A stretch of DNA of 64,000 nucleotides, from positions 2,270-66,269 of the IMG/VR virus record IMGVR_UViG_3300003323_000115, one strand, 5' to 3'. The position numbers were made by a program, and so were the translations under genes. The notes beneath the pieces are model-generated. The model was given only the letters and a program-made list of their open reading frames with translations, did no database searches and was not told where the DNA came from. Positions within the stretch are counted from its first letter, which is position 1, and every line of letters starts with the position of its first letter. Source of the DNA: a virus. Shown piece after piece: positions 33,251-64,000 of this stretch.

Positions 33251-33658
33251 ATGAGATACATCATCAACACGGAGATCGGACTGCTTGCCGATGCCATCCT
33301 ACGTGGTGGTTTTACTGGCGAGGCCAAGTTCTCCAACAACGGTTGTACAGGTACCGTTGAGATCTTCGGGGACGACTTCATTGCATTGGAGCTCACCGGC
33401 TTCTGCAAAGAGACGTTGTTCATCGCTTACGACACCGAAGAAAAAGACTACATCCTGGTCGGTCGCTACGACATCCGTAATCGTTTCATCGAAGTACCCA
33501 CTGTAGACGATATCGTCAAGCTGGCTTGGAGTACCTACAAGGACTACAAGAGCAGCAAGGAATGGGGCCGTCCTACCGAGTGGGACAGCCTCTGGAAGAA
33601 AGCGGGCTACATCACCACCAAGACCATCCAGAAGACGGTCGAGGTGGAGAAGGATTAG
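33251..33658 (+). CDS. Hypothetical protein (135 aa) inserted downstream of the terminator
   Basis: AAGGA SD and ATG 33251; its stop overlaps the vRNAP stop. Confidence 0.75.
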   Translation: MRYIINTEIGLLADAILRGGFTGEAKFSNNGCTGTVEIFGDDFIALELTGFCKETLFIAYDTEEKDYILVGRYDIRNRFIEVPTVDDIVKLAWSTYKDYKSSKEWGRPTEWDSLWKKAGYITTKTIQKTVEVEKD

Positions 33659-36600
33659 AACAGGATGTTCGCCCAGGGATTCAAGTGCAGTGCACGGAAG
33701 CCCTGACCAATACCCAACGACCCCCACAGGGAGCCACTGAGCCCCTTGCTGAACAGGTTATCCCCGAGAGGTGTACCCACCCCACTGGGAGCCGGTGTCA
33801 GGCCCGCCAGCAGTGCGTTGACGGGGTTGTTGCGGATCATGGACAGAGCCACCTTGGTCGAACGAATCTTGAAGTTGTAGAACCACATCATCCCCATGGC
33901 TTCCATGTAGCCACGGAAGCGTCCAGGCAGACGATCGTAGTTGACGAACTCTTCGGTCACTCGTGCCAACGCTTGCTCCTTCGTGAGCTTCTTCCGCATC
34001 GTCAGATCGTCATAGAGGACGGCCTTGGCCAGGAAGTCACCATACTCGACCGCCTTCTGAAGGCCTTCGAACAGTGCGGTGTCTTTCGTGACAAGTGCAT
34101 ACCGTCCCACGGTCTGGGCAGCGCCCGGAAGTTTGCTCACGAGACGTTCCATGTACGCATGGAGTCGTCCTTCGCTCAGCAGGATCTCATCCCTGCTGAT
34201 ACCTGCGTCGGAAATGGAACTGAACTCACCTGCTTCAATCAGGGGCCAGATCGACAGACGGCGATGGCTGTCTTCAATCGACTGGATCTCTGCTTGCAAC
34301 TTCCTGGTGAGCACGGTGTTGCCTTCAGCAGCACGTAGCTCAGCCTCAGCATCGATTGCTCGCAGCTTGCTCTTCACATAGGCGTTGACCTCCGCAGTCT
34401 TGCGGGGGAATTGACGCACCATGGAACCAAGAGGAACACCACGTCCGGCGAGTTGATACAAATTCGAGACGAAGTTTGCAGCAGGAACGATCATCGACTT
34501 CACGACGATGATCACTCGTGCATCCTGCACGAAGTTCTGGACCGTCTTTTCCGCTTGGACCAGGTAACGATACGCTTCGTTGCCGAAGACGGAGATTGCC
34601 AGATTGCGAACCTGATCTTGAGTTGCTTGGCTCCAGCGAGTGGTACCAGTCCATGCGTCACCAATGGACGCCTGACGGTACCCCATCGCATCCTCAAGCA
34701 TGTCCTTGCGCACCCAGAAATGGTCTTTGCCAAACAGAGCCTGTGCAGTCCTCTTGGTCTGTGCAGTCATCAACGACACCGCGTCACTCAGAACCGGATC
34801 CTTAGCCAGTGCCCTCTTGTCAAAGAGGTCCACGTATTGATCTTTCCCAGTGCCTCGCTGTTGGTCGGCTTCCCATACCTTGTGCAGGGCCTCGATCAGA
34901 TACTCGTTATAGATCTGACCCGATTGCTCTTCTGCTTGACGACCACGCCAGATGCCGATGTTCTTGGCAAGGTGCGTGTTGTATTGCAGACGCTGAAGCT
35001 GTGCGGGATCGATGCTGCGTTCGAACGCAACCGCAACACCCATCTCGTTGTACACGGGGAGAAGATTCTCCGTTGCTTTCTCCTTACCCATATCACGGAA
35101 GATCTTGGCCACAAGCTGACGATCCGTAATGCGACCAGCAGTCATCCCCATGGTGAAGCCAGTTGCAGCATCCACACCGTTCACGGTAGTGCGAACGTTC
35201 TGGAGAATGCCTTGATTGAAGGTTGCACGACTCGGCGTTGCCGAGAAGTAGTAACCACGGCTGGACTTGGTTGGATCGATGTTCGATCCAGCATAGTCAC
35301 CGATGCGCTTGTACGAGCGCTCAGCCAAGTCCTTGAAATTGCTGTCATCAGCAACGATGAGAGACAGACTCTCCGCTTGATTGGAGGGGATGTAGCCCTT
35401 GTAGTTGTTGAACTCAGCCTTGCCCGAGATGGAAGTCTTCGACTGTTCCTCGGCACGCTGACCAACCAGATACGACAGAGCAAATGCAACCCCAACCTTC
35501 TCGGTTTGAACCAAGGAAGACAGGGACTTGAGATCAGGCTCGGCCTGTGCATCGAGTGCATACAGCGAGGTCAGATGGTCCACTGCACGAATGAGTGCAT
35601 CACTGGGTTTGTCTCGACCACGAGACACTTTTTCTCCGAACAGATTTGCAATGGCGGTAGCGTTGCGCAGCAGGTTCACACCAGCTTCGCCAGTACGCAT
35701 GAACGTTGCAAGCTGTTCGGATTTTTCTTTGAGGCGCTTGGCATTATCCGGATCGATCCGAGCAATGTCGGCTTCCAGAGACTTGATCTCTGCGGTCCGT
35801 GCAGTCTTGTCGTCGATCAGGTTGAGCACCTTGGTGGTGGTCATGCCCGTTGCAACAAGAGATGCAAGGTCAGTCTTCGCCACACCATTGTGAAGAGTGG
35901 TCCACTCACTGTCAGACAGTGAACGAGTGAACTTCTTGGCAATGGTGGTGGGCACGTGTTCCACGTAAGCCTGACGGACTTGAGTCACGTATGCACGAAC
36001 CTTCTTGATCTTGTCGTAGACCTCAGCGTTCTCGCTGGTACGACCGATCATGTCAGTGAGCAGATTCTTCAGCGGAGCCCACAGCTTCGAACGATTCACC
36101 TCATGCTGGAGACCGTTGGCAACCTTCTCAGCAATAGATTCGCTGGTGATTGCAGCCATGATCTTGGCCAGCTTTGCAGTCTGAGTCACGAGAGTTCCGC
36201 TGTTGCTGTTGATGACAGCATCAGCCTTGTCCACAACCTTCTTCGACAGGGCTTCGAGAGCCTGCTTGGCCTTCTCATTGGCTTGATCCACGAAACCGCC
36301 AGTCTTCGAGAAGTACTCTTCGAAGGTGTTGTTTCGTTCTTGGGTCGAGTCGATGATGTGATTCATCAGCGCATCAAGCTGACCTTGAACATTTGTGCTC
36401 TTGCCTTCACCAGACATGCGAGCAGCCAGCGATTCCATGGCAGTGTTGCCAATCGCTTCGAGCACACCATCCAGAGTACCCCAGTTCTTATCAGCACCCT
36501 TAGGCAGTTCCATCTTGGACAGTGCCGTACGCAGCTTCTCCGAGGTCATCGAGAGAGCCAGGAACTGAGAGAGAAGGGTCGAACGACCTTCCGAATCCAC

Positions 36601-39600
36601 GCCAACACCGAAGTTGCCCATAAGGGTGTTGTACTGATCTTGGGCGTAGTACAGATCAGCAGGATGCTGACTATTCGGGTTGTCCATCAGATCTTCCATC
36701 ACGAGGTTCTTCACGACGTGATCGTAGAGAGCGTGTGCACGGGACATCGAGGCACCGTTGATACGTGCCTCGGTACCCAGAGCAGATACCACCATCGAGA
36801 AAGCGTCACGTTCCTGTTGCGTGGGCAGCAGGCCATGGGCAGCGAACTCGTTGGTCAGGTCCACGTCTTGCAGCAGAGCAGCAGTCTCAGCACGACGCTT
36901 CTGTTCCATCGCAGGCGTGAGTTGCACGTCACGATCAAAGCGAGCATTCACCGTGTCAACGATGATCTGCTGGAAGCCTTGCTTCACACGTTCCAGACGG
37001 TCACTCGTTCCGTACAGCGTGTTGTGAGCCTGGATGCCGGGAGCACCCTGGAAGCTCACACCCTTTTCTGCTTGGTTCCGAATCACGACAGCCGTGTTGA
37101 ACAACAGGTTCGACAGCATGTCGTTCTTGGGAACAGAAGGTGCAACCTTGCGGCCCCACACCATCTTTTTGATGCCTTGCCAGACCTTCTCGGCAATGGC
37201 CACCAGGGGCGAGAAAACCTTGTTCTTCTGGATCTCAGCCAGCTTGCGATTGGCCAAGCTCCATGCCATGAACTCGTTCACAGCCGAGGCCATATTCCCG
37301 AGGTTGACCTCACGATTCACGACAGCGACAGCGTGCTCGTACAGCGCACGAGTTTCCGGCGTACCAAACCGATTGGTCTGAGTCGCCAGAAACTGCTTCA
37401 TCATCGCTTCGATATTTTCGATGGCAGTCTTGGTCGTGGGCTCGACGGTACCGCCGTTGTAGTGAGCCGTCAGGGAATCGGTGACCGATGCATGGATGAG
37501 TTCATGCAGCGTCGTTTCCAGAGAGCCATTCATCACAGCGATGATCTTGTGCTGGGCATCCGAGAAGCCAGCCAGATTGCCACGTGCAAGCTCTTCAGGC
37601 GAAGGTTGATAGGTAGGCATGCCCTTGGCATTGAACCAAGCAAGAACAGCCTCAGGCGTGCCCGTCACGAGACGCCAGCCATCAGCAGCCTTGGCTCGGA
37701 CGATCTCACCAATGATCTGACCTTCAGCATCTGTGGCCGAAGTCTTCTTGACCTTGCGCAGGAGCTTGTTGATGTCCTTCACATCACCAACCCGCACATC
37801 ACCATCGGCAGTACCGAACTTCGAGAAGTCAGCCTGCACATCGATGTTCCAGGGGCTCGTACTCTTCGGTGCTTCCGGCAGGTCAGCAACGACGGGGATG
37901 GGACGAATAGTCTCATCCTGCACAACCGGATCTTCGAGCACCACAGGCTCAGTGGTGAACTCTTCAGGAGGCGTCATCACCTCGGGAAGATCTTCGATGG
38001 TGCGTTGCTTCAGTTCCAGCGCAGGCTGGTTCTGACGCTCTTCGAGCAGCAGTTGTTGAAGTGCTTCTGCCTTCTGCTCGTTGTCACCCACGAGCTCGAT
38101 CTTTCCAGGCGTCTGGTAGGGTGCACCCACTGATGCCATTTGATCCAAGGAAGCAGAGACCTTCGCCAGCACAGCATGGCGTGCATCGATGTCACGGGCA
38201 GCGTACTGCACATCATGTTCCAGGATTTGCAGAGCACCCAGGATGTCTTCCGGGGTCAGGTCTTCAGGAACAGTCTTGCGATCAAAGATCGCCTTGGCGA
38301 GTTGCTTCTTGACCTCCAGGTCATTCAACGGAGCCAAGGACAAACCATCCAGCATTGCCGAGAACATCTCAGCAACAGCCTTCATCGGGTTGCCTTGCCA
38401 GGACTCATAGACAGCCTTGTTCATGCCTTGGCTGGCACCAACGATGTTGTCCAGGGGCAGATTGATACCGTCGAACACAGGCAGGGTTCCACGGATCACT
38501 GATGCATCTTGGGATGCGTGCTGCATCATGGCACCGTCACCGGTACCGATTACCAAGGAGGCGATGCCAGCCACACCTGCATTTGCAGGGCCTTGCACGA
38601 ACTGGCGAACTTCCATGCCGCCATTGACATGCTCGGTCATCACTCGACGCTTCTGCTCTACCGACTGGCTGTCAGCGATATAGAACCGCTGGCTACCGGT
38701 GTCGATGAACGGATGCAGCGGAGCAAGCTGCTTCTGGATATCGTCGAGTTCTGCTTGAGTCAGGAACTCGGATTCAGAGAAGTTGGGATTGGCTTCCTTC
38801 TTCTCTGCCAGCTTTTGATTCACAAGACGCTGGAACTCATGCGACAGGAAGATCGACTGCACCTGAGTTGCTTTGCGGATCATCGTGGTTGCATCGTTCA
38901 ACGACTCGCCAGTGTTGTACGAGATCGCATCACGCATCGGACCAACGAAGATGTTGAGCATATTCGTTGCCATATTGTCGAGCTCACCACTGGTGAACTG
39001 GAACTTCTCCAGGTTCACATTCGAGTAGCTGCGACGGTTATCGATCGGTGTATCGATGACAACTTGTTCACCGCGAACAACACGGACTTGCTTGTTGATC
39101 AGCGAGTCCAGAGCCGAAGCGAAGGTGGCCATGTCAGCCTCTGCATTGGGACCAGGAAACAGACGTTGTGCAGTCGTTCCTTCGTCACCTTGCAGAGCTT
39201 CGCTCATGCGTTCATAGATCTTCTCGACGAGGTTCTGCACGACCTTGCCAGCAATGCCCTTTGCACCCGAACCGTAGACGGTGATCGTCAGCGGGTTCTT
39301 GGCGATGCCACGATCCAGCTTGAGCACACCGGTGTCTTCATCGAAGGACAGATCCTTGCCAAAGAACAGATCCATGACCTTGAACAGGTGACGCATCTGA
39401 TCACCAACAGGCGAACCAGCAGGATTGGCCTTGAGACCCATCACCATGGTTTCGGACATCGTGTTCGTGGTTGCCTTGTAGAGGTCAGTGCCGTCATCGA
39501 ATTCACGATGCTGGTTCATCGTCTTGTCAGGCTGACCGAAGAACAGGCCACCCTTGCCCATGTTCTTCACCCAGTCAGCAGTGAAGTCACCCATGGAGAG

Positions 39601-42600
39601 CAGGCCCATCGAGTTGACCGGACCATTGGTCACACCGTCCGCTTCAACGTACAGGTGCGTCTCGAATGCCTTCTTGTCCGTGGTATTGCGAAAGCGTGCT
39701 TCTTCCATCAAGGCATGTAGAGCCACAGCGGACATGTCACCACCGAGGTTGTCCTTCAGACCCTGCACCGTTGCTTCATCGATCACACCACCAGTTTGGA
39801 GCCAAGAAGCAAGGGACTCCACGCTATCACGCAGTCGGCCTTCGAACAGATCCGACAGTTGCTTTTGCATGGTCTCACGGCTGATCTGATGGACCTTGAT
39901 ACCAAGGGCTTGTGCCTGTGCGAGACGGAAGGCTTCCAGTTGATCTGCTTGGGTCAGATCCATCACCGAACGAGTCGGCATGATCATCTCACGCAGCATC
40001 TTGTTCGACTGAGGGGTGTAGGCACCCAGCATCTGAAGACGGCCAACCTTGGACATGTTGAAGCCATAGTGGATCGGGTGACGATCTGCTTCGACACCTG
40101 CCACGTCAGCAGCATTCGAGAGCTCGGCCATCAAGCCCTCGGCGTAATGGAAGGCATCGACGATTGCTGCATTCTGTCCTTCCACAGTCTTGCGATGCCC
40201 ATCGTTCCACTTCTGGGCAGCAAGGTCACCATTGCCTAGGAGATGCAGCACAGCATCCAGGCCCAGACCTTCCAGGAAGAAAGACGACATCGTGTCGTTC
40301 TTGAAGTACGGAGTCTCCTGGTTGGCCTTGATCGCTGCCTTCTGTGCAGGCGTGTTCTCGGTGTAGCGGCTGCGCATTTGATGCGTAGCAACCGGAGGAC
40401 GTTCATCACCGAAGTAGTGAACAGGCGTGGGCTTCACCAGCATAGCCACATCGATGGCATTCGGGAAACCTGCAATCACACTGTCCTTGCCCATCTTGCT
40501 CGTGGTCTTCCAACGAGTCTGCGAGACAGTTTCCTTGTTGGATCCAACGAGATCAGTGAACGTGAACTCAGCACGTTCAACCAAATCAGCAGCTTCCATG
40601 GCAGCAAGCACTTCCGTGGCGATTGCCATGGGAATGCCTTGCGTGAGACCGGTACCCACATCCTTCGTGGGTTGCAGTCCCCAGTACTGCTCGATCTTGT
40701 TGGCGATGGACTGGAGGGTCTCCAGATTCGTCGTACCAGCACGCAGCATGTCCAGCATCTCTTGGGTCACGAATGCTTCAGGAATACCCAATTGCTTGGC
40801 TGCATCGCTGGCATCTTCGACACCACGAGTCGATGCAGCAGTGATGAACCATTGCAATCCAGCCAGTGCAGCAGCTTGAGCAAGTTGCTCGTTGTAGCGC
40901 ATGCCACCCTTGCCATCATCCTCCAGCAGGTTGAAAGCCTTGGTGTTCGGGAAGCGCAGCACATCCTCACCAGCTTGCAGGCGAGACAGCAGGGTCTTTC
41001 CTTCATTGGCTCCGCTCTTCGGTGCCTTACTCAATGCCTTCTTGGCAGCAGCATTCATGGCATCCACCAGCGTGGGTACCATGCCAAGGATGCTCTCCTG
41101 GTAGAAGTCAGAGATCTCTTTGGTCAGTGCACGAGTAGGCGTAGAACCAAGAAGGGAAGTCAGGCCCTGTTCAGACGACAGTGCTTCGGTCAGCATGTCC
41201 AACGGAGATTCCGTTCGGAGCATGCGACTCGATTCCTCAGCACGTGGACGGAATCCACGGGTGAAGTAGTTGTTGGTGTTGCCCACGAGACCGGGAAAGA
41301 CTGCAGCCAGTCCCTTCGGAGAAGGGTTATTGTCCGGGGCTCGTTCAGCAACCTCGGGGGCAACAGACGAAGGTTGCTTCTCTTCTGAAGTTGTCTCGGT
41401 AGGACGTACAGCCGAAGTCTCTGTAGGTTCTTGCTTACCCTTGGGGGATTCAGTTGTCTGGTTCTCTGCAACAGTACCCTTGGTATCACCTGTTGCACCT
41501 TCGGTAACTTCCTGGTTGGAAACCTTCGTGGTAGCTTCTACGGTAGCATTCGTGCTCACCGTGGGCTCCGTTGCAGGAGCCTTTTCTACAACCAGTCTCT
41601 GCGAATCCTTGTATGCCTTTGCCAGATCGGCGGGGGTGCCGACCAACGAGGAATCCAACGGAGTGACATCAAAATGACCAATTCCCAGTTCCGGGTACGC
41701 ATCAGCGAGCGCATTCGCAACGCGGCCCACAGACTGAGCCTCTGCGGCAACACGTTGAGCAAATTGGATCGATCCCTGGGAACCACGGTGAATCTGGATC
41801 GGCGTCGTCCCATCACGCCACTCCCGCTCGGGAGCGGAGACCAGAGTACGGTAGAAGCTCTGACCCTTCGAATTCACATCCCGGCCAGCTACGTTGGCGT
41901 TGATCGCACCTACCTTGTTGCTCATGTGCTCCACGAATTGCATCAGGTCACTGAGCCGGGCAGCAGCCTCATCGAGATTACCCGCGTTGTGCGCAGACCG
42001 AACCCCCTTCGCGTATTGGGTCAGCGACTGCTTAGCCAAGCCCGCCGATTCACCATCAGCCGTCAGAACACCACGGCTCACCCAGTCTTCACTCTTTAGG
42101 CCTTGTGCTTGACGCACAGCGTCAAGGTCACGAGCAGCCTTGAGTTCTTCACTGATCACCATCAGGCTACGACGACGGGTTGCATTGATGCCGAGTTCCT
42201 CGGCACGCTTCAGCATCGCATCCACCGATTCCGGAGAGAGTCGGCTCGGATCCAGCTCCAGCATGGCGATATGGGCACGCAGCGAGGCACCCCCTTCAGG
42301 CGTGGAGATGTCCGTTTGCTCGGTGAAGGGGTTTGCCTGCACTCGCTTCGAAAGGCTCTCTGCGGCCTTGGCAACAGCCTCACGTGCACGTTCCACGGTG
42401 GGGGTCTGTTCCATGTCGTTGATCAGCGACCGGTATTGTTGGATGAACTGAACAGCCGGGTGATCGTCCGGAAGGTTCTTGAGAGCAGCAGGCTCCTTGA
42501 CCAGAGTATCAGACAGACCATCGAGAAGCAGTTGTGCAACCCGTGCGGACAGGTCACCTTCTTCACCGCCCTTCTTGGCATGCTCAGTCAAACGACGCAG

Positions 42601-44307
42601 CACATCCAGCTTGTCGGTAGAACCATCAAGCAGAGAACCAAGGAAAGGAAGAGCCTGCGTCAATTCCGAGAATTGCTCGGGATCGTATTGGCTGGACTTC
42701 ACCAACTCATCCACGTAGGCATTGGCTTCTTGCTTGGCCTCCGGGGCAACGGTCTCGGGCAGATCGTTCACAGCGGTCTTGACCGTTTCTGCGGCAGCAG
42801 GTGCTTCAGCAGCGGCAGCAGCAACAGCTTCTCCCACCTTGGCATCAGCCACAGGGGATGCTTCGGTGTTCTGTGCTTGGATACGTTTGCCTCGTTCCAG
42901 GAGCGGATTCACGAGAGCAGAGCCAAGGTTCACAGCAGTGGTGCCAAGGGTCGTTGCAGCACCTTCAACCAGGTGCGCACCAGTGCGGGGAGCTTGAACC
43001 AAGCCAGCAGAGGTGAAACCACCGAGGCCACCCAGACCAGCTTGTTCGCCTACCTTATCCAAGAGGTCTTGGTTCTGGTTGGCATATGCCTTCTGGCCTA
43101 CGTTCTGTGCAAATTGGCCGGTACCGGACTGGATGGTTTCCTCGACCGTCTCACGCAGTACATTGGCACCTGCATGACGCAGGTTTGCCACCGAGAAGGG
43201 GGCACCTTCGAACTTGCTCACCAGGGTACCCGTTGCAGCAGCGAGAGGCGCAGCAATGGCACCAGCAGTCAGACCTGCCTTGTTAGCAACAGCAACACGT
43301 GCCTGCTCGGGAGAAGCACCTTCCATGACCAGACGACTGAACTCGGGAGACTCTGCGAAGAGCTTCGAGAACGGCGTCTTCATCACTTCGTCTGCGGTCT
43401 GCTGGTAGGCACCACCACCTTCCATGGCACCAATAGCAATCGGAATACGAGTGGCTTCACCGATCTTGGCGAGTTGGGTAGCAGCAGCCGAACCTTCGGT
43501 CACCAGACCTGTACGGGCAGCACCAGCACCCAGGGCCTTGCCACCTGCACCAACCACCTTGCCAACAGGTCCAGCAGCCAGAAGGGAACCTGCACCGGTT
43601 GCAGTGAGGTCACCCAGCAGAACAGAGTCGCTGGCCTGATTCGACACAGCAGTCTTGAGATTGCGTGCCTCACGGCTGATCTTGGCAAGCGTAGGACTGA
43701 TGCCCGTACCAATGTCAGCTTGTGCCTGGGCTTCGGAGTCACGGTACTCCAGTTGATTTTCTACTTGGTTCAGATCCCGTCGAGCCTGGAGAGTTGAGCT
43801 TTGGCTCTTCTGGAAGGCATCGTTGATCTCACCAATGACCTGTGCAGTACGAGCACCAGCGTTGTCATTGATGGCACCCAGGCCGAATGCAGCGATGCCA
43901 CCAACGGCATTGCCAAGGCCAAGCCCAAGACCAGTGGCGGTGTCGTAGAAGGCTTCACCATTGCTTCGAACACCGGAGGCATCTTGTCGTGCCTGACTTG
44001 ATGCACCTGCTTGACCCAAGAGAAGATTCATCCCCTCGTTGGGATACTTCGCCAGGATCTGAGCAGGAGACAGGGTAGCAAGATCGAGCTCTAGACCTTG
44101 AGAGGTCTGACGGCCTGCATCTCGCATGGCACCAACTGCTGCATTGCGTTGCAGTTGATCCATTTTCGCTTGAGAGGCTGCTGCCACCTCCCCTTGTTTC
44201 ACCCCCGTCAATCCTTGGATTGCGGACAGGGGTGTCGCTTCCACAGTAGGCTGGGGAGAAACCGGAGTTGCAGTGGCTTGATTCATCAAGTCTTGAAACG
44301 TGGCCAT
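33655..44307 (-). CDS. Virion-encapsidated RNA polymerase (N4 gp50-like, about 3550 aa)
   Basis: Motif A YVEADGVTNG, motif B RGIAKNPLTITVYG, GTGDG...PVFDG; no Cys seen on reading, a known N4 vRNAP trait; start MATFQ at 44307. Confidence 0.97.
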   Translation of the reverse strand: MATFQDLMNQATATPVSPQPTVEATPLSAIQGLTGVKQGEVAAASQAKMDQLQRNAAVGAMRDAGRQTSQGLELDLATLSPAQILAKYPNEGMNLLLGQAGASSQARQDASGVRSNGEAFYDTATGLGLGLGNAVGGIAAFGLGAINDNAGARTAQVIGEINDAFQKSQSSTLQARRDLNQVENQLEYRDSEAQAQADIGTGISPTLAKISREARNLKTAVSNQASDSVLLGDLTATGAGSLLAAGPVGKVVGAGGKALGAGAARTGLVTEGSAAATQLAKIGEATRIPIAIGAMEGGGAYQQTADEVMKTPFSKLFAESPEFSRLVMEGASPEQARVAVANKAGLTAGAIAAPLAAATGTLVSKFEGAPFSVANLRHAGANVLRETVEETIQSGTGQFAQNVGQKAYANQNQDLLDKVGEQAGLGGLGGFTSAGLVQAPRTGAHLVEGAATTLGTTAVNLGSALVNPLLERGKRIQAQNTEASPVADAKVGEAVAAAAAEAPAAAETVKTAVNDLPETVAPEAKQEANAYVDELVKSSQYDPEQFSELTQALPFLGSLLDGSTDKLDVLRRLTEHAKKGGEEGDLSARVAQLLLDGLSDTLVKEPAALKNLPDDHPAVQFIQQYRSLINDMEQTPTVERAREAVAKAAESLSKRVQANPFTEQTDISTPEGGASLRAHIAMLELDPSRLSPESVDAMLKRAEELGINATRRRSLMVISEELKAARDLDAVRQAQGLKSEDWVSRGVLTADGESAGLAKQSLTQYAKGVRSAHNAGNLDEAAARLSDLMQFVEHMSNKVGAINANVAGRDVNSKGQSFYRTLVSAPEREWRDGTTPIQIHRGSQGSIQFAQRVAAEAQSVGRVANALADAYPELGIGHFDVTPLDSSLVGTPADLAKAYKDSQRLVVEKAPATEPTVSTNATVEATTKVSNQEVTEGATGDTKGTVAENQTTESPKGKQEPTETSAVRPTETTSEEKQPSSVAPEVAERAPDNNPSPKGLAAVFPGLVGNTNNYFTRGFRPRAEESSRMLRTESPLDMLTEALSSEQGLTSLLGSTPTRALTKEISDFYQESILGMVPTLVDAMNAAAKKALSKAPKSGANEGKTLLSRLQAGEDVLRFPNTKAFNLLEDDGKGGMRYNEQLAQAAALAGLQWFITAASTRGVEDASDAAKQLGIPEAFVTQEMLDMLRAGTTNLETLQSIANKIEQYWGLQPTKDVGTGLTQGIPMAIATEVLAAMEAADLVERAEFTFTDLVGSNKETVSQTRWKTTSKMGKDSVIAGFPNAIDVAMLVKPTPVHYFGDERPPVATHQMRSRYTENTPAQKAAIKANQETPYFKNDTMSSFFLEGLGLDAVLHLLGNGDLAAQKWNDGHRKTVEGQNAAIVDAFHYAEGLMAELSNAADVAGVEADRHPIHYGFNMSKVGRLQMLGAYTPQSNKMLREMIMPTRSVMDLTQADQLEAFRLAQAQALGIKVHQISRETMQKQLSDLFEGRLRDSVESLASWLQTGGVIDEATVQGLKDNLGGDMSAVALHALMEEARFRNTTDKKAFETHLYVEADGVTNGPVNSMGLLSMGDFTADWVKNMGKGGLFFGQPDKTMNQHREFDDGTDLYKATTNTMSETMVMGLKANPAGSPVGDQMRHLFKVMDLFFGKDLSFDEDTGVLKLDRGIAKNPLTITVYGSGAKGIAGKVVQNLVEKIYERMSEALQGDEGTTAQRLFPGPNAEADMATFASALDSLINKQVRVVRGEQVVIDTPIDNRRSYSNVNLEKFQFTSGELDNMATNMLNIFVGPMRDAISYNTGESLNDATTMIRKATQVQSIFLSHEFQRLVNQKLAEKKEANPNFSESEFLTQAELDDIQKQLAPLHPFIDTGSQRFYIADSQSVEQKRRVMTEHVNGGMEVRQFVQGPANAGVAGIASLVIGTGDGAMMQHASQDASVIRGTLPVFDGINLPLDNIVGASQGMNKAVYESWQGNPMKAVAEMFSAMLDGLSLAPLNDLEVKKQLAKAIFDRKTVPEDLTPEDILGALQILEHDVQYAARDIDARHAVLAKVSASLDQMASVGAPYQTPGKIELVGDNEQKAEALQQLLLEERQNQPALELKQRTIEDLPEVMTPPEEFTTEPVVLEDPVVQDETIRPIPVVADLPEAPKSTSPWNIDVQADFSKFGTADGDVRVGDVKDINKLLRKVKKTSATDAEGQIIGEIVRAKAADGWRLVTGTPEAVLAWFNAKGMPTYQPSPEELARGNLAGFSDAQHKIIAVMNGSLETTLHELIHASVTDSLTAHYNGGTVEPTTKTAIENIEAMMKQFLATQTNRFGTPETRALYEHAVAVVNREVNLGNMASAVNEFMAWSLANRKLAEIQKNKVFSPLVAIAEKVWQGIKKMVWGRKVAPSVPKNDMLSNLLFNTAVVIRNQAEKGVSFQGAPGIQAHNTLYGTSDRLERVKQGFQQIIVDTVNARFDRDVQLTPAMEQKRRAETAALLQDVDLTNEFAAHGLLPTQQERDAFSMVVSALGTEARINGASMSRAHALYDHVVKNLVMEDLMDNPNSQHPADLYYAQDQYNTLMGNFGVGVDSEGRSTLLSQFLALSMTSEKLRTALSKMELPKGADKNWGTLDGVLEAIGNTAMESLAARMSGEGKSTNVQGQLDALMNHIIDSTQERNNTFEEYFSKTGGFVDQANEKAKQALEALSKKVVDKADAVINSNSGTLVTQTAKLAKIMAAITSESIAEKVANGLQHEVNRSKLWAPLKNLLTDMIGRTSENAEVYDKIKKVRAYVTQVRQAYVEHVPTTIAKKFTRSLSDSEWTTLHNGVAKTDLASLVATGMTTTKVLNLIDDKTARTAEIKSLEADIARIDPDNAKRLKEKSEQLATFMRTGEAGVNLLRNATAIANLFGEKVSRGRDKPSDALIRAVDHLTSLYALDAQAEPDLKSLSSLVQTEKVGVAFALSYLVGQRAEEQSKTSISGKAEFNNYKGYIPSNQAESLSLIVADDSNFKDLAERSYKRIGDYAGSNIDPTKSSRGYYFSATPSRATFNQGILQNVRTTVNGVDAATGFTMGMTAGRITDRQLVAKIFRDMGKEKATENLLPVYNEMGVAVAFERSIDPAQLQRLQYNTHLAKNIGIWRGRQAEEQSGQIYNEYLIEALHKVWEADQQRGTGKDQYVDLFDKRALAKDPVLSDAVSLMTAQTKRTAQALFGKDHFWVRKDMLEDAMGYRQASIGDAWTGTTRWSQATQDQVRNLAISVFGNEAYRYLVQAEKTVQNFVQDARVIIVVKSMIVPAANFVSNLYQLAGRGVPLGSMVRQFPRKTAEVNAYVKSKLRAIDAEAELRAAEGNTVLTRKLQAEIQSIEDSHRRLSIWPLIEAGEFSSISDAGISRDEILLSEGRLHAYMERLVSKLPGAAQTVGRYALVTKDTALFEGLQKAVEYGDFLAKAVLYDDLTMRKKLTKEQALARVTEEFVNYDRLPGRFRGYMEAMGMMWFYNFKIRSTKVALSMIRNNPVNALLAGLTPAPSGVGTPLGDNLFSKGLSGSLWGSLGIGQGFRALHLNPWANILF

Positions 44308-44339
44308 AGTGTACCCTGAATTCGAGATATGTTGGAGGT

Positions 44340-44348
44340 AGTGTATCA
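44340..44348 (-). promoter_or_regulatory. Candidate sigma70 extended -10 late promoter for vRNAP
   Basis: TG-A-TACACT on the - strand, 33 nt upstream of the start and just downstream of a terminator; N4 late genes use host RNAP. Confidence 0.35.
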
Positions 44349-44358
44349 CCCCCAAATG

Positions 44359-58320: not shown

Positions 58321-58347
58321 GATTCATTCCTGTGTTTGGGCGGGGCC

Positions 58348-58383
58348 AAAAGAAAGCCCCGCTAGAGTTGAGCCTAGCGGGGC
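58348..58383 (-). terminator. Rho-independent terminator between the tail and lysis modules
   Basis: GCCCCGCTAG-GCTCAACT-CTAGCGGGGC followed by TTTCTTT. Confidence 0.85.
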
Positions 58384-58445: not shown

Positions 58446-58820
58446 TCAACTCTCTTCTGCGAAACCGTAGTGACTTGGCCAGGGTTGTAGTTTGTGCACA
58501 CCACGCAGCGAATGATCACAATCGTCAAGAAAAATGATTTCACCAGGCTGTGCGCCGTTGCATCCGACGAACGAATGACAGAGGGTCTTCTGAGGATACT
58601 GCTTTCCCTCGTAATCGTGCGCTGGGATGATGACATGCACGCTGGGGCTCAGGATTGGCGCATCGTAGTCGCCGTTGAAGTGCCAGTTGCGGTCAGGATC
58701 ACCGCCCTTGACGGCCACGCTGTGGGCGCACTCACAGCCGTGGCACCAGAACGTGATGCCCTCCTGTCCCGTGACTGAGTTGACCCAGCGCCGGATGCCG
58801 AATTGACCGTGTGCGCTCAT
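58446..58820 (-). CDS. DUF6527-like Cys/His protein
   Basis: FWCHGC..H...WHFNGD...PILSPSV...CHSFV...GEIIFLDDCDH.L.G; CAGGAG SD. Confidence 0.65.
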   Translation of the reverse strand: MSAHGQFGIRRWVNSVTGQEGITFWCHGCECAHSVAVKGGDPDRNWHFNGDYDAPILSPSVHVIIPAHDYEGKQYPQKTLCHSFVGCNGAQPGEIIFLDDCDHSLRGVHKLQPWPSHYGFAEES

Positions 58821-58837: not shown

Positions 58838-59311
58838 TCAGTTGTACAGCTCGACTTCAAGAAAGCTGTTTGGCACAGCCTTCAGCACCAGGGAATTGGC
58901 AACGTTCCAGTTGATGCGCACAGCCACGTAGTCGCCAGGAACAACGGCAAACTCAGACGTGAACGCCTGATAGTTACCGCCGCCGAAGCCTCCGCTCGCT
59001 TGCCATGCTTGCGTCTCGCCTTGTGCTGTGCCACCCGTCCCGTCGTCGGCCACGCCAGTCATGATCTTGAACGAAAAACCACCAGGGTTATTGTTGTTCG
59101 TGACTGTGAGGGAAGCGCGTGCCTTGGCCTTGGTGTAGCCAGCAGGCACCACGATCTGCCGACCATTCGACACACTCATGTCTCCAGCAGACCAGACGAT
59201 TACATTTGGACCAGAGGCGGCAGAACCAATATTGATGTCTGCCGACAGCTTGGCGCGAAGGAAACGCGATGGCAAAACGATGCCTGTGCGTGATGAGTTC
59301 GTTGATGCCAT
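58838..59311 (-). CDS. Stand-alone C1q/TNF-like jelly-roll protein, putative receptor-binding tip
   Basis: Beta-rich pattern IVVPAG...VVPGDYVAVRI...SFLEVEL; AAGGA SD. Confidence 0.55.
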   Translation of the reverse strand: MASTNSSRTGIVLPSRFLRAKLSADINIGSAASGPNVIVWSAGDMSVSNGRQIVVPAGYTKAKARASLTVTNNNNPGGFSFKIMTGVADDGTGGTAQGETQAWQASGGFGGGNYQAFTSEFAVVPGDYVAVRINWNVANSLVLKAVPNSFLEVELYN

Positions 59312-59320
59312 GGTGGTCCT

Positions 59321-59746
59321 TTAGAGCGATTGCCCTTGGAAATAGGTAAGTGCGGCGCCTCCGTTGATGTCTGTTGCGGTTCCTGTGAAGCAGCGCACGT
59401 CGTAGACATCGGTTCCAGAAGCTATGTCTTGCGCAGCCACGCCAGTTGCATTTGTCGATACAGGTTGATCACCTCGTGCAAATTCGACGCCATTTTTAAA
59501 AATGGAAATAACGATGCCGTTGGTGATTTGAGTGTTGACACTCACCGAGGCGTTCATGTGGATAAGACCGGCTGGCGGCGTCCATGCGCTTGATGCAAAG
59601 TCACCTCGTAGGTCGTAGCGCTCCGTGCCAAAACTCACAGGTAGGAAAGAGCCCGTTGAAAGGCTCTGTGTAGAACCATTCTTATGTGCAGAGAATGCCG
59701 ACACTCTGTTAGGAATTCCGGTTCTCGCAGGATTCGTCGTTGCCAT
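59321..59746 (-). CDS. Stand-alone gC1q-like protein, putative receptor-binding tip
   Basis: AFSA...Q...VSF..E.YD...F...WTPPAG...ASV...ISIFKNG matches the gC1q pattern. Confidence 0.65.
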   Translation of the reverse strand: MATTNPARTGIPNRVSAFSAHKNGSTQSLSTGSFLPVSFGTERYDLRGDFASSAWTPPAGLIHMNASVSVNTQITNGIVISIFKNGVEFARGDQPVSTNATGVAAQDIASGTDVYDVRCFTGTATDINGGAALTYFQGQSL

Positions 59747-59748
59747 GA

Positions 59749-61218
59749 TCAGGTGCCCATGTTGATCGTCACGCTGGCGGCAGTGCCACTGATCGCGGTG
59801 ACGTTGCTGCGCACGAAGGCATAGCGGTCGTCGCTCGTGAAGCTGTCGCTGACAGCCGCCGTGCCTAGCGTCAGGCTGAAGGTGCCGATCACATCCCAGT
59901 TCGTGCCGTTGTTAGAACCTTCGATGTTGATCGTCGCAGCACCCGTCGAGGTAGACACCGTGCCGAACGCTTGGAAGGTCTTGCGACCGGCTGGCGCTGC
60001 AGTCGAAGATCCTGCTACGACCGTAGTTGCCGCGTTTTGCAGCGTAGTCACTTGGACGGTACTACGAATATCGACCAGGGCGCCACGTGCAACTGAGCCG
60101 CGTGCACGGACCCACGCAAGAGCGTTGCCGTCGTAGTACATGTTGCCGAACGCAGGCAAAACGTCAGTACCGGTTCGGCTACGGAATAGTTGCGTGGTGT
60201 TGTTATTGATGGTGTCGCTGGTGTTCGATGAGCCTGCCATGGAAACAAGAACAGCACCGTCCACGTTCATCAGCAAGTCGCTACGCTGGCCGTTGGTGAG
60301 CGCCGTGGCCGAAGAGTTGTAGCGACCGCCGACCTTGACTGGATTGCCCGAGTCGGTGCCTGCATGTGCAACCCCGCCTTCGACCCACAGACCGCGCTTC
60401 GAGCCACGGAAGCGACTGAGGAACGTCGTGTCGGTGTCATAGAGGTAGCCCAGCGAACGATTCGACTGGTAGGTATTGCTCAGCGACAGGTCGTCCACTG
60501 CGGAGCCTGCGCTGTCCGTGAAGAACTTCCACAGCCCCTTCAGCACGGCGATGATGCTGCCGCTCGATGTAGCGCTTGCAGCCGCTGCATCTGCCGGCGC
60601 ACCAGCTGCCGTAGCAATGGTGCCGAGCGACGTGTTGCCCGTGGTCTGAGCAGCGCTCGTTGCAGCACCGCTGGGAAGCGGCAGGCTCGCCACGCTGACG
60701 GGCGACGTGACACCACTGGGATCGACAGGAATACGACCCGAAACAAGTGCCGGAGTTTTCCCATCGATATTGGAAAGACTGGTATTGCCAGTGTCCTGCT
60801 TTGCAGCAGTGGCATTCGTGCCATCCTTTAGCGAGGTGGTTTGCGTTGCCAGAGCCGCAACCAATTGAGCATTGGTGGCACCACCACCGCCACCTGCCAG
60901 ATCGATGTCTGCTGCCAGAGGTGCAGAAGCCAGATTGGTACGAGTCGTCTGGTTGTACCAGACCGAGGACTCGATGGCAGGGCTTGCACCACTGACATTG
61001 ACCACCAGAGTTCCAGTGATCAGATCACCTTGAGATGCACCCGTGAATGCCTTGTTCGCGGTGTACGACAGGGTGATGAGTTCCTTGTCGGGACCACCAG
61101 AACCACCGCCGCCGCCAGCATCGACGAGTTCGCCAATGCCTTCAGCAATGTCCTCAAGGACATCGAGTTGATTCCGACGTGCAGGCGGTTGAGCAGACGG
61201 GATGGTGTTGTGAGACAT
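59749..61218 (-). CDS. Putative tail fibre or appendage protein
   Basis: Ala/Thr/Gly/Ser-rich, internal repeats, beta-rich C-terminal domain; position in the tail region. Confidence 0.65.
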   Translation of the reverse strand: MSHNTIPSAQPPARRNQLDVLEDIAEGIGELVDAGGGGGSGGPDKELITLSYTANKAFTGASQGDLITGTLVVNVSGASPAIESSVWYNQTTRTNLASAPLAADIDLAGGGGGATNAQLVAALATQTTSLKDGTNATAAKQDTGNTSLSNIDGKTPALVSGRIPVDPSGVTSPVSVASLPLPSGAATSAAQTTGNTSLGTIATAAGAPADAAAASATSSGSIIAVLKGLWKFFTDSAGSAVDDLSLSNTYQSNRSLGYLYDTDTTFLSRFRGSKRGLWVEGGVAHAGTDSGNPVKVGGRYNSSATALTNGQRSDLLMNVDGAVLVSMAGSSNTSDTINNNTTQLFRSRTGTDVLPAFGNMYYDGNALAWVRARGSVARGALVDIRSTVQVTTLQNAATTVVAGSSTAAPAGRKTFQAFGTVSTSTGAATINIEGSNNGTNWDVIGTFSLTLGTAAVSDSFTSDDRYAFVRSNVTAISGTAASVTINMGT

Positions 61219-62442: not shown

Positions 62443-64000
62443 TCAGGAATTCGTCGGGTCTTCGAACTTGCCAATGATACGCAGGGCGTAAACGAAGCCA
62501 TTTCCGCCCCAAGTCAGGCGACGGGTATATCCACCTGCATTGGCAGCAAGCACCATAGCCTGTTGGACATTCGGAATTGGACCACGCCATTCATTGACTG
62601 CGGTTGAACCCTCAGCCGTATAGAAGCCAGAAGGCGTTCCATCACCAGTCCAGGAAATCGGAACAGTGATCGAAGTGGTAGGTGCATACGGAGTCGTCGT
62701 GCTACCACCACTGGAGCTCACTTCCTGGGTACTTCCTTCACGGAAAGACTCACGGCAATTTAAGCCACTGCTGGAAATGAATTCCTCGTACTGGCCTGCA
62801 TTGGTGAACGTACCCGGATATGCCGGAAGACTCGATTCAGGCGCAATCTGGTAATACCGGATCTTGTTGTAGTTGTGGTCGTCATTGGTGCCAGACGGGT
62901 CAACTTTGTCCAGCAACTTGTACGAACGAACCTGCTTACCGGCAGGCGCTGCAATACCCCAGGTCAGATTGCGAGTTGCACCGATCCTGGAAACACGCCG
63001 ATCAAACGTATTGAGTTCAGTCACACCACTGGAAGTGGCAGTGTGTGTTCCCGTAGTGTCATCGACAATTCGGATCAGATTGTTCGAACCAATCATGAAG
63101 GTATTGAATTGGGAATTCACCCACGAATTGATCGAATCGATACCACCAGCCAGAACACCAGAACTCGGGGGAGCCATGCGAACCGGGGCAGTCAGTACGG
63201 GAGTGCTCTCATTGATCCGGGATACCTGGATGTTCCAGGTAGCGTAAGGCGACGATCCAACCTGAGGAACAGATTGGGTGAAGCTCGCAGATCCCGCAGC
63301 AATTTCACCATCGCTCAGCAAGGTACCAGCCAGATTCTTGGCCTCAATGGTCATTGCACCGCCCTTGGCAAAGCTGTCGGAAATTCCAACACGGGAATAA
63401 CCATTGATCAGCTTGAACCCAGAAGAGGTTTGCTCGATTTCTGGAACTTCAGGGAAGCTATACGTTTCGGTGAGACGGCACGCGGTAATAGCAAAGGTCA
63501 ATGGCATACGAGCCACCAAGTCATTTGCATCGGTGAAGATCACCTTGCGGGTCATCCTCACCTCCCCCAGGAAAGCCGGGGAATTCTTCGTCAGCTTGGT
63601 CTGATAAACGAATTGACCAGGACGATCCAGCACCACACTGGCAATATCAGTCCAGGTCTGGAATTCAGAACCATCAGTCGGAACCAAGGCAAAAAGAAGA
63701 TCCGTCCAGGTATCGAATTCACCCGAGTCATCGAGTTGAACAGTAACCGGATATTCGATATCCGGACTGTCGAGCTTCATCCAGGTGGCAATGGTCAGTT
63801 CAGCCTGGATGCTGCTTTCATCGAACTTCTTCTTGTCCCAGTAGACGTATTGGCGCAGCACATCATTCTTCGCCAACAGGAATCCAGGACCACTATTCCA
63901 AGTGGTCGAGTCAATGGGAACACTATTCTTGAAAGCCATGAATGGCAGGTCGTCCTGAACAGTGTCATTGCCGAAGATGAAATTAGAGAAATAGGTGTCA
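62443..64000 (-). CDS. Putative tail protein (5' partial; frame stays open to the window edge)
   Basis: Upstream of ATG 63939 the frame reads DTYFSNFIFGNDTVQDDLPF with no stop; Ser/Thr-rich beta-type composition. Confidence 0.65.
   Translation of the reverse strand, partial: DTYFSNFIFGNDTVQDDLPFMAFKNSVPIDSTTWNSGPGFLLAKNDVLRQYVYWDKKKFDESSIQAELTIATWMKLDSPDIEYPVTVQLDDSGEFDTWTDLLFALVPTDGSEFQTWTDIASVVLDRPGQFVYQTKLTKNSPAFLGEVRMTRKVIFTDANDLVARMPLTFAITACRLTETYSFPEVPEIEQTSSGFKLINGYSRVGISDSFAKGGAMTIEAKNLAGTLLSDGEIAAGSASFTQSVPQVGSSPYATWNIQVSRINESTPVLTAPVRMAPPSSGVLAGGIDSINSWVNSQFNTFMIGSNNLIRIVDDTTGTHTATSSGVTELNTFDRRVSRIGATRNLTWGIAAPAGKQVRSYKLLDKVDPSGTNDDHNYNKIRYYQIAPESSLPAYPGTFTNAGQYEEFISSSGLNCRESFREGSTQEVSSSGGSTTTPYAPTTSITVPISWTGDGTPSGFYTAEGSTAVNEWRGPIPNVQQAMVLAANAGGYTRRLTWGGNGFVYALRIIGKFEDPTNS

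Follow-up and report, generated by a model that had tools for sequence, protein, structure and literature searches.

We examined a 64-kb stretch of DNA (the window, meaning the whole stretch analysed) that lies within a 75,910-bp IMG/VR virus record carrying direct terminal repeats, focusing on two adjacent minus-strand genes, P0001 and P0002. Their small products open with a nearly identical 11-residue peptide (the tag) and continue into different bodies that are predicted to adopt beta-sandwich folds of the C1q/tumour necrosis factor (TNF) type; we suggest that they may be accessory receptor-binding heads mounted on the phage tail through the tag. The two genes and their tags are located as follows.

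59321..59746, minus strand: P0001, a 141-amino-acid (aa) C1q-fold head (leader, residues 1–15; jelly roll, residues ~16–141)
59714..59746, minus strand: P0001 tag, MATTNPARTGI, codons 1–11 (from translation, BLASTP and all-pairs comparison)
58838..59311, minus strand: P0002, a 157-aa predicted TNF/C1q-fold head (from the open reading frame (ORF) and its translation, with model alignment of residues 14–157)
59279..59311, minus strand: P0002 tag, MASTNSSRTGI, codons 1–11 (from translation, BLASTP and all-pairs comparison)

An earlier interpretation made from the letters of the window (the sequence-only reading) had described adjacent 141-aa and 157-aa genes opening with a common peptide of the MAxTNxxRTGI type, and the genes are located as it claimed, with tags identical at 8 of 11 residues but at only 21 of the 33 underlying bases. 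Among the eight shared residues, five (Asn, Arg, Thr, Gly and Ile) use different synonymous codons; those that the sequence-only reading quoted for R-T-G-I are correct in both genes (AGA ACC GGA ATT in P0001 versus CGC ACA GGC ATC in P0002), and Asn is likewise encoded differently (AAT versus AAC). Because five of the eight shared residues differ in codon, the constraint acts on the protein rather than on the DNA or mRNA, and recent gene conversion does not explain the match, which bears out the earlier suggestion of protein-level selection on the peptide. In a single BLASTP comparison of the two proteins, the sole match was N-terminal (10 of 16 residues identical, E = 0.006), and when residues 2–11 were compared all-against-all among 253 ATG-initiated ORFs (31,878 pairs), P0001 and P0002 formed the single best pair (7 of 10 identical), followed by one pair with six identical residues and four pairs with five. 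The match exceeds chance because, besides this rank, the two genes adjoin and have one fold in common. Beyond the tag, the bodies are so different that a profile–profile comparison of the two families with hhalign detected no homology (E = 0.23), and a PAG motif occurs at the same place in both (residues 58–60 in P0001 and 56–58 in P0002). The two genes share a reading frame and are separated by a TAA stop and three codons (window positions 59309–59323, minus strand), and P0002 is preceded by its own AAGGA ribosome-binding site. Their description as stand-alone genes also holds, with no further start codon upstream in either frame.

The proposed C1q/TNF-like beta sandwich is clear for P0001 and was also recovered for P0002, but there on a weak model. 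An AlphaFold2 model of P0001, built with 12 homologues, had a predicted local distance difference test score (pLDDT) of 87 and a predicted template modelling score (pTM) of 0.81. Foldseek matched it with probability 1.0 to C1q, TNF and the spike knob of Staphylococcus phage phi812 (TMq 0.75–0.77); structural alignment gave VIA Z 17.8 against the C1q domain of Caprin-2 (root-mean-square deviation (rmsd) 1.9 Å over 122 residues) and Z 17.6 against the phi812 knob (PDB 9eul), and its best counterparts in a library of viral models were 'C1q domain containing proteins' from uncultured phages, along with proteins of tail fibres. The single-sequence AlphaFold2 model of P0002 had a pLDDT of only 58.7 and a pTM of 0.59, but its residues 14–157 align to the phi812 knob, EDA, TL1A and Caprin-2 C1q (Z 11.4–12.6, rmsd 2.5–3.2 Å), with the structural alignments covering 116–129 residues and TNF-like lectins also among the matches (Z about 11–12.6). 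On these models, both proteins belong structurally to the globular C1q (gC1q)/TNF-like jelly rolls, with the assignment of P0002 resting on a low-confidence prediction. The phi812 central spike knob, a fold at the distal end of a tail protein, is the best or tied-best solved match of both (Z 17.6 and 12.6); the short tail fibre of cyanophage A-1(L) (8ke9) and the tail of cyanophage A4 (9k09) were also compared, and in all three phages, unlike here, the domain forms part of a long fused protein, with a sequence identity of only 11–19%. Neither P0001 nor P0002 matched any Pfam family at E values up to 1, the C1q and TNF profiles included; likewise, no member of a 13-member alignment of the P0001 family (A1) matched Pfam C1q or TNF, and a profile of that family matched no PDB sequence. 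Because these sequence profiles are unmatched, the resemblance to C1q/TNF is at the level of fold only. In both models, the fold begins at residues 13–15, placing the shared peptide outside the domain, and model confidence is lowest in the leaders (pLDDT ~51 for residues 1–10 of P0001 and below 50 for residues 1–15 of P0002).

The P0001 module is widely used elsewhere, in varied combinations. P0001 has 12 homologues at 37–48% identity, and its module occurs at 66 IMG/VR loci; a hidden Markov model (HMM) of the core gave 67 ORFs, comprising 66 from other contigs and P0001 itself. It is C-terminal in 60 of the 67 ORFs and preceded by highly diverse leaders of ~3 to more than 900 residues (median 198), exceeding 300 residues in 19 ORFs and measuring 61–300 in 29, 21–60 in 14 and 20 or fewer in 5. 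In one homologue (P0013), a T4 gp9/10 N-terminal motif (Pfam) stands immediately before the head, and the N terminus at locus L027 looks similar by eye. On marine podovirus-like contigs, leader motifs of 27–36 residues are common to several small neighbouring genes, and at three loci (L005, L018 and L021) a C1q-tipped fibre and its neighbour are alike N-terminally and different downstream. The P0001-type head is, from these comparisons, a portable tip normally joined to some attachment piece, and for such a piece only the leader of ~15 residues is available in P0001. The tag itself is missing from all 12 P0001 homologues. P0002 belongs to a very rare family, for which an exhaustive HMMER search of 1.84 billion representatives found one true relative (P0016, 37% identity), a distant homologue that lacks the RTGI part of the tag. 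A 91% cluster member of P0002 (P0018) keeps all 11 tag residues; phage records, IMG/VR and JGI metagenomes held no relatives of P0002.

The two genes lie in a tail operon. The N4-like (Schitoviridae) identity of the genome follows from its layout and marker genes: a giant ORF, a gp64/gp65 sheath, a gp66 anchor and an N4-type portal, with the 768-aa portal, endolysin and spanins resembling those of many Schitoviridae. In N4, the tail sheath is non-contractile, with gp64 as its minor subunit; gp65 is the major one and also binds the receptor, and the appendages consist of gp66 (PMC13434306). Along the minus strand, the order is gp65-like, gp64-like, P0003 (a fibre-like protein), P0001, P0002, DUF6527, a terminator-like hairpin, lysis genes and portal. 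The relevant neighbours, and the other genome features named here, are as follows.

59749..61218, minus strand: P0003, a 489-aa fibre-like protein, with 2 nt between its stop codon and the start of P0001
61251..62501, minus strand: gp64 homologue, 416 aa (Pfam PF23845, 5.7e-27; PDB 9lc0_M 'Gp64', 4.6e-32)
62443..64000, minus strand: C-terminal part (498-aa ORF) of a gp65-like major sheath/receptor-binding protein, running past the window edge
L070 9743–10627, minus strand, outside the window: gp66-like appendage protein, 294 aa (N-terminal anchor common with N4 gp66, 1.9e-18)
58446..58820, minus strand: DUF6527 protein, 124 aa, the last gene of the transcription unit (Pfam PF20137, 3.3e-06; phrog_3362, 7.4e-22)
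58346..58383, minus strand: strong intrinsic-terminator-like hairpin (11-bp stem, 8 G–C pairs, T-run) that ends the sheath/fibre/head operon
33655–44355, minus strand: 3566-aa ORF, read as the virion RNA polymerase from its size and position alone

Two relatives, Delftia phage RG-2014 and Pseudomonas phage inbricus, have a ~110-aa gene and then the endolysin immediately after gp64, so that P0003, P0001, P0002 and the DUF6527 gene form a four-gene insertion into the tail operon. The accessory tailspike gene gp63.1 of the N4-like coliphage G7C sits at the equivalent genome position, and P0001 and P0002 occupy a site used for accessory receptor-binding proteins in N4-like phages. A search with the gp64 protein found no close phage relatives in IMG/VR, and a search with the P0003 fibre found none among phage records. 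No meaningful direct or inverted DNA repeats, and hence no signature of a diversity-generating retroelement (DGR) or invertase, occur in the sequence, as had been claimed for this locus, and a scan against Rfam matched no family.

The explanation that we find most likely, at about even odds, is that P0001 and P0002 serve as accessory receptor-binding heads mounted on the tail via a shared docking tag. Under this explanation, each head would consist of a C1q/TNF-type jelly roll alone, presumably as a homotrimer, with a leader of ~13–15 residues in place of the fibre shaft, and the three N-terminal tails at the base of each trimer would bind one type of site on a tail component. Candidate platforms include the co-inserted 489-aa fibre P0003, the gp66-like appendage and the gp64/gp65 sheath, and the phage would present two different lectin-like heads, perhaps binding receptors, besides its sheath and appendage. 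The peptide is read as a docking tag because it is common to two neighbouring and otherwise unrelated proteins yet absent from homologues elsewhere, because it is located where fused homologues join shaft and head and has been kept despite synonymous change, and because the pattern equals that of published conserved peptides of secondary receptor-binding proteins.

Those published cases come from other podoviruses. The tailspikes of K1-5, K1E and SP6 carry N-terminal peptides of 7 or 11 residues that attach to an adapter, gp37 (PMC6872550), and KP32 gp38 and KP34 gp57 attach to a T4gp10-like branching domain that the first receptor-binding protein carries (PMC6872550; PMC13352976); such docking peptides are conserved within a phage group and different between groups (Latka et al.; PMC6872550). 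In KP32, deletion of the peptide abolishes both incorporation of the second receptor-binding protein and propagation on its host, and grafting the peptide onto a foreign enzyme leads to incorporation (PMC13352976). The phage studied here resembles K1-5, SP6 and KP32 in its several putative receptor-binding proteins, the secondary ones lacking an anchor domain and having a short conserved peptide (of 7–29 residues and specific to a phage group in those systems) ahead of unrelated binding domains, and in the interruption of an otherwise conserved run of structural genes by receptor-binding genes. The hallmark of secondary receptor-binding proteins, a short N-terminal peptide in place of an anchor followed by non-homologous bodies, is present. 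Unlike in those systems, the heads are minimal jelly rolls of 125–145 residues rather than large beta-helical depolymerase spikes, one tag stands on two proteins of one phage, the background is N4-like, and the case is known from sequence and models alone.

Closer to this background, the gp63.1 tailspike of N4-like G7C is held by gp66, according to the account of Prokhorov et al. (2017) given in PMC6872550. G7C shares with the phage studied here the N4-like background and the insertion of an accessory receptor-binding gene near the gp63/gp64 position, and the docking explanation would add a further likeness, in that the accessory protein would be held by another tail protein and not by the particle directly, as is established for G7C. 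As described in that account, G7C gp63.1 differs from P0001 and P0002 in being a large tailspike of the esterase type whose N-terminal domain is folded, and a T4gp10-like domain is present in the gp66 of G7C; the gp66 homologue here is 294 aa long and has only the N-terminal anchor in common with N4 gp66. For stand-alone C1q heads, Mizuno et al. (2014) described C1q genes beside the tail fibre in pelagiphages and uncultured podoviruses, with a conserved N terminus and variable head, and proposed them to be receptor-binding (PMC3909814). P0001 and P0002 resemble these proteins, and the C1q proteins of uncultured Caudovirales in BFVD, as small (150–200 aa) C1q-fold heads beside a fibre, which also provide the best predicted-structure matches of P0001; unlike here, the leaders of the pelagiphage-type proteins are ~27–40 aa or longer, and these proteins are not known to include two unrelated heads that carry one 11-residue tag.

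Several observations weigh against the docking explanation, and bear particularly on where the heads would be held. P0003 has 254 homologues, among which the N-terminal ~130 aa are conserved and the distal part is variable, and it has no sequence match in Pfam, PHROG or PDB; its residues ~380–489 form a small C-terminal globular domain of its own, structurally like 108-aa viral proteins. It looks like a complete fibre and not a headless shaft awaiting a tip, and because it carries its own terminal domain, the suggestion in the sequence-only reading that the heads serve as tips of this upstream fibre is doubtful. Nor did the T4gp10-like domain (Pfam PF07880) match anywhere in the genome, including the homologues of the fibre, gp64, gp65 and gp66, so that, unlike in KP32-type systems, no such platform was detected with Pfam; this is a weak test, as the published cases needed HHpred comparisons to T4 gp10 domains 2–3. 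Of the two heads, P0002 has a fold assigned at low confidence, as described above. Finally, the known tagged proteins amount to two and one 91% relative, a very thin sample from which to judge how far the tag is conserved across phages.

Nor does the tag recur widely. Searching IMG/VR with a degenerate DNA pattern for M-A-x-T-N-x-x-(R/S)-T-G-I returned a single match, to a 167-aa gene immediately downstream of a major-capsid gene (L073 3894–4397, minus strand) that begins M-A-Q-T-N-R-K-S-T-G-I and has no other similarity, and which is probably a chance match. Metagenome contigs gave 84 matches, mostly out-of-frame or belonging to one repeated gut element, compared with ~40 expected, as estimated from the information content of the pattern and an assumed collection size. 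No match in either collection heads a C1q-like gene, and a six-frame translation of the genome contained no other occurrence of the tag save one out-of-context match on the plus strand. The search for the RTGI tag on other small phage genes that the sequence-only reading had suggested thus returned one unrelated match in IMG/VR and metagenome matches at about the chance level.

Alternatively, P0001 and P0002 could be particle-associated C1q/TNF proteins whose peptide is a remnant of common origin, or serves the proteins themselves as a trimer-base cap, folding start or processing site, with any attachment made through the body, even to the capsid as decoration. The single fold, similar size and identically placed PAG motif fit an old tandem duplication, and tandem C1q modules, stand-alone or fused, occur at 10 of 63 other loci with no obvious shared tag. 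However, the bodies have diverged beyond detection whereas the tag is still 73% identical despite synonymous turnover, which indicates that the peptide itself is selected, and a peptide required for folding should persist in homologues, which it does not; the genes also belong to the tail operon, at a long distance from those of the capsid. We consider this alternative unlikely overall, if deserving of some weight. Less plausible, in our judgement, is that the proteins are not virion components at all, acting instead as fibre-assembly helpers or chaperones or as soluble lectin-like late proteins. Small genes just downstream of a fibre gene often encode assembly factors (Tfa of Mu and P2, and gp38 of T4), and the start of P0001, 2 nt past the fibre stop codon, suggests coupled translation. 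Yet neither protein matches a chaperone family in Pfam or PHROGs, the P0001 module is a distal C-terminal fibre domain in ~60 contigs, as expected of a head and not of a helper, and the closest matches among solved and predicted structures are knobs that bind receptors and the tips of tail fibres.

Two further alternatives concern how the two products might be combined. Complement C1q, built of A, B and C chains, is a heterotrimer, as are some TNF ligands, and P0001 and P0002 could similarly co-assemble as a heterotrimeric head, with the shared N terminus setting the register; the genes are adjacent and co-transcribed, with the same fold and N terminus, and PDB entries 1pk6 and 4zch are among the structural matches. 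We find this quite improbable, as the bodies lack the detectable sequence similarity that would make matching trimer interfaces likely, the P0001 family occurs alone in most genomes, and none of the tests made here favours it. Recoding appears highly improbable; on this view the fibre and P0001 would be joined by a −1 frameshift and P0001 and P0002 by read-through of the TAA stop, making the seemingly stand-alone heads fibre tips. Upstream of P0001, its frame stays open for 55 codons and is the −1 frame of the fibre gene, and the shared frame of P0001 and P0002 and their short spacing recall the fused two-module proteins found elsewhere (L017 and L006), but both ORFs begin with ATG, P0002 has its own ribosome-binding site, and TAA is rarely read through. 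The fibre–P0001 frameshift fusion was rejected, as the last 70 fibre codons contain no slippery heptamer or homopolymer run, and the P0001–P0002 read-through fusion was judged unlikely from the TAA stop and the separate ribosome-binding site of P0002.

Returning to the docking explanation, both of its components are known, in the form of fibre-adjacent stand-alone C1q genes and of short N-terminal docking peptides in other podoviruses, and the idea is less new than the sequence-only reading implied. What is new is the combination, together with the small size (an 11-residue tag and a bare head), the presence of one tag on two unrelated heads and the N4-like background; a literature search for N4-like phages and C1q together found no paper. 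If the tag docks, it would provide a very compact natural form of modular host recognition (an 11-residue plug and a 130-residue head), would extend the principle of a conserved peptide and socket from Klebsiella phage and coliphage tailspikes to C1q-type heads and N4-like phages, and would offer a simple handle on the swapping of receptor-binding tips in uncultured phages. If it has no docking role, the two genes are an ordinary pair of small fibre-tip paralogues. More tentative is a stronger version, in which the 11 residues act as a universal plug that mounts two unrelated minimal C1q/TNF trimers on one tail socket without a T4gp10-like domain; we doubt that it applies in full, but if it is true, no smaller natural plug-in system for receptor binding (141–157 aa for tag and bare head) would be known so far, and a new socket would be implied. 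The survey of one C1q head family behind many leaders is of use in annotating the many 'C1q domain' genes in viromes.

Other arrangements of small heads were seen among the contigs carrying the P0001 module. Two-module tandem fusions occur as proteins of 277 aa (L017), ~760 aa (L006 and L009) and 1090 aa (L053). Five marine podovirus-like loci (L037, L041, L047, L060 and L063) contain arrays of four to six adjacent genes of 130–190 aa, several of which have a common N-terminal motif of ~25 residues and differing heads (C1q-type or of a type ending in GDLA), and these arrays resemble systems of several heads that share one N-terminal attachment piece. At another locus (L052 1924–5732, plus strand), four adjacent genes of 170–185 aa have dissimilar leaders of ~35–45 residues; three match the C1q head family significantly and the fourth looks alike. 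Three contigs (L061, L017 and L074) had no match to the portal of the phage studied here, and by that test none is N4-like.

Among the neighbouring tail proteins, the full gp65-like ORF encodes 1671 aa (L070 4713–9728, minus strand; Pfam NCTSP_N, 8.4e-09), and Pfam models match it only over a short TIM-barrel stretch and, through NCTSP_N, over its first 130 residues, leaving the remainder unassigned. The 294-aa gp66-like protein has a C-terminal motif like the end of 'Gp49' (PDB 9d83; E = 1.7e-05 for the whole sequence).

The fibre family of P0003 shows variation of its own. The 91% relative of P0002 (P0018) and an 80% relative of P0003 (P0019) lie on one 20.66-kb Logan contig, and the first 45 residues of P0019 differ in type from those of P0003. 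Across the family (including P0019–P0030), two alternative N-terminal segments of ~45 residues precede a glycine run, and from these sequences the extreme N terminus looks like a swappable anchor. The unchanged tag of P0018 on the contig of P0019 is compatible with the idea that the tag attaches to the fibre's conserved body, which we take as only a hint. On a 61-kb contig with no match to the portal of the phage studied here, a 526-aa P0003-family member is followed by one 691-aa gene and then a DUF6527 homologue (L074 6893–10937, plus strand), and P0003-type fibres and DUF6527 genes may travel together.

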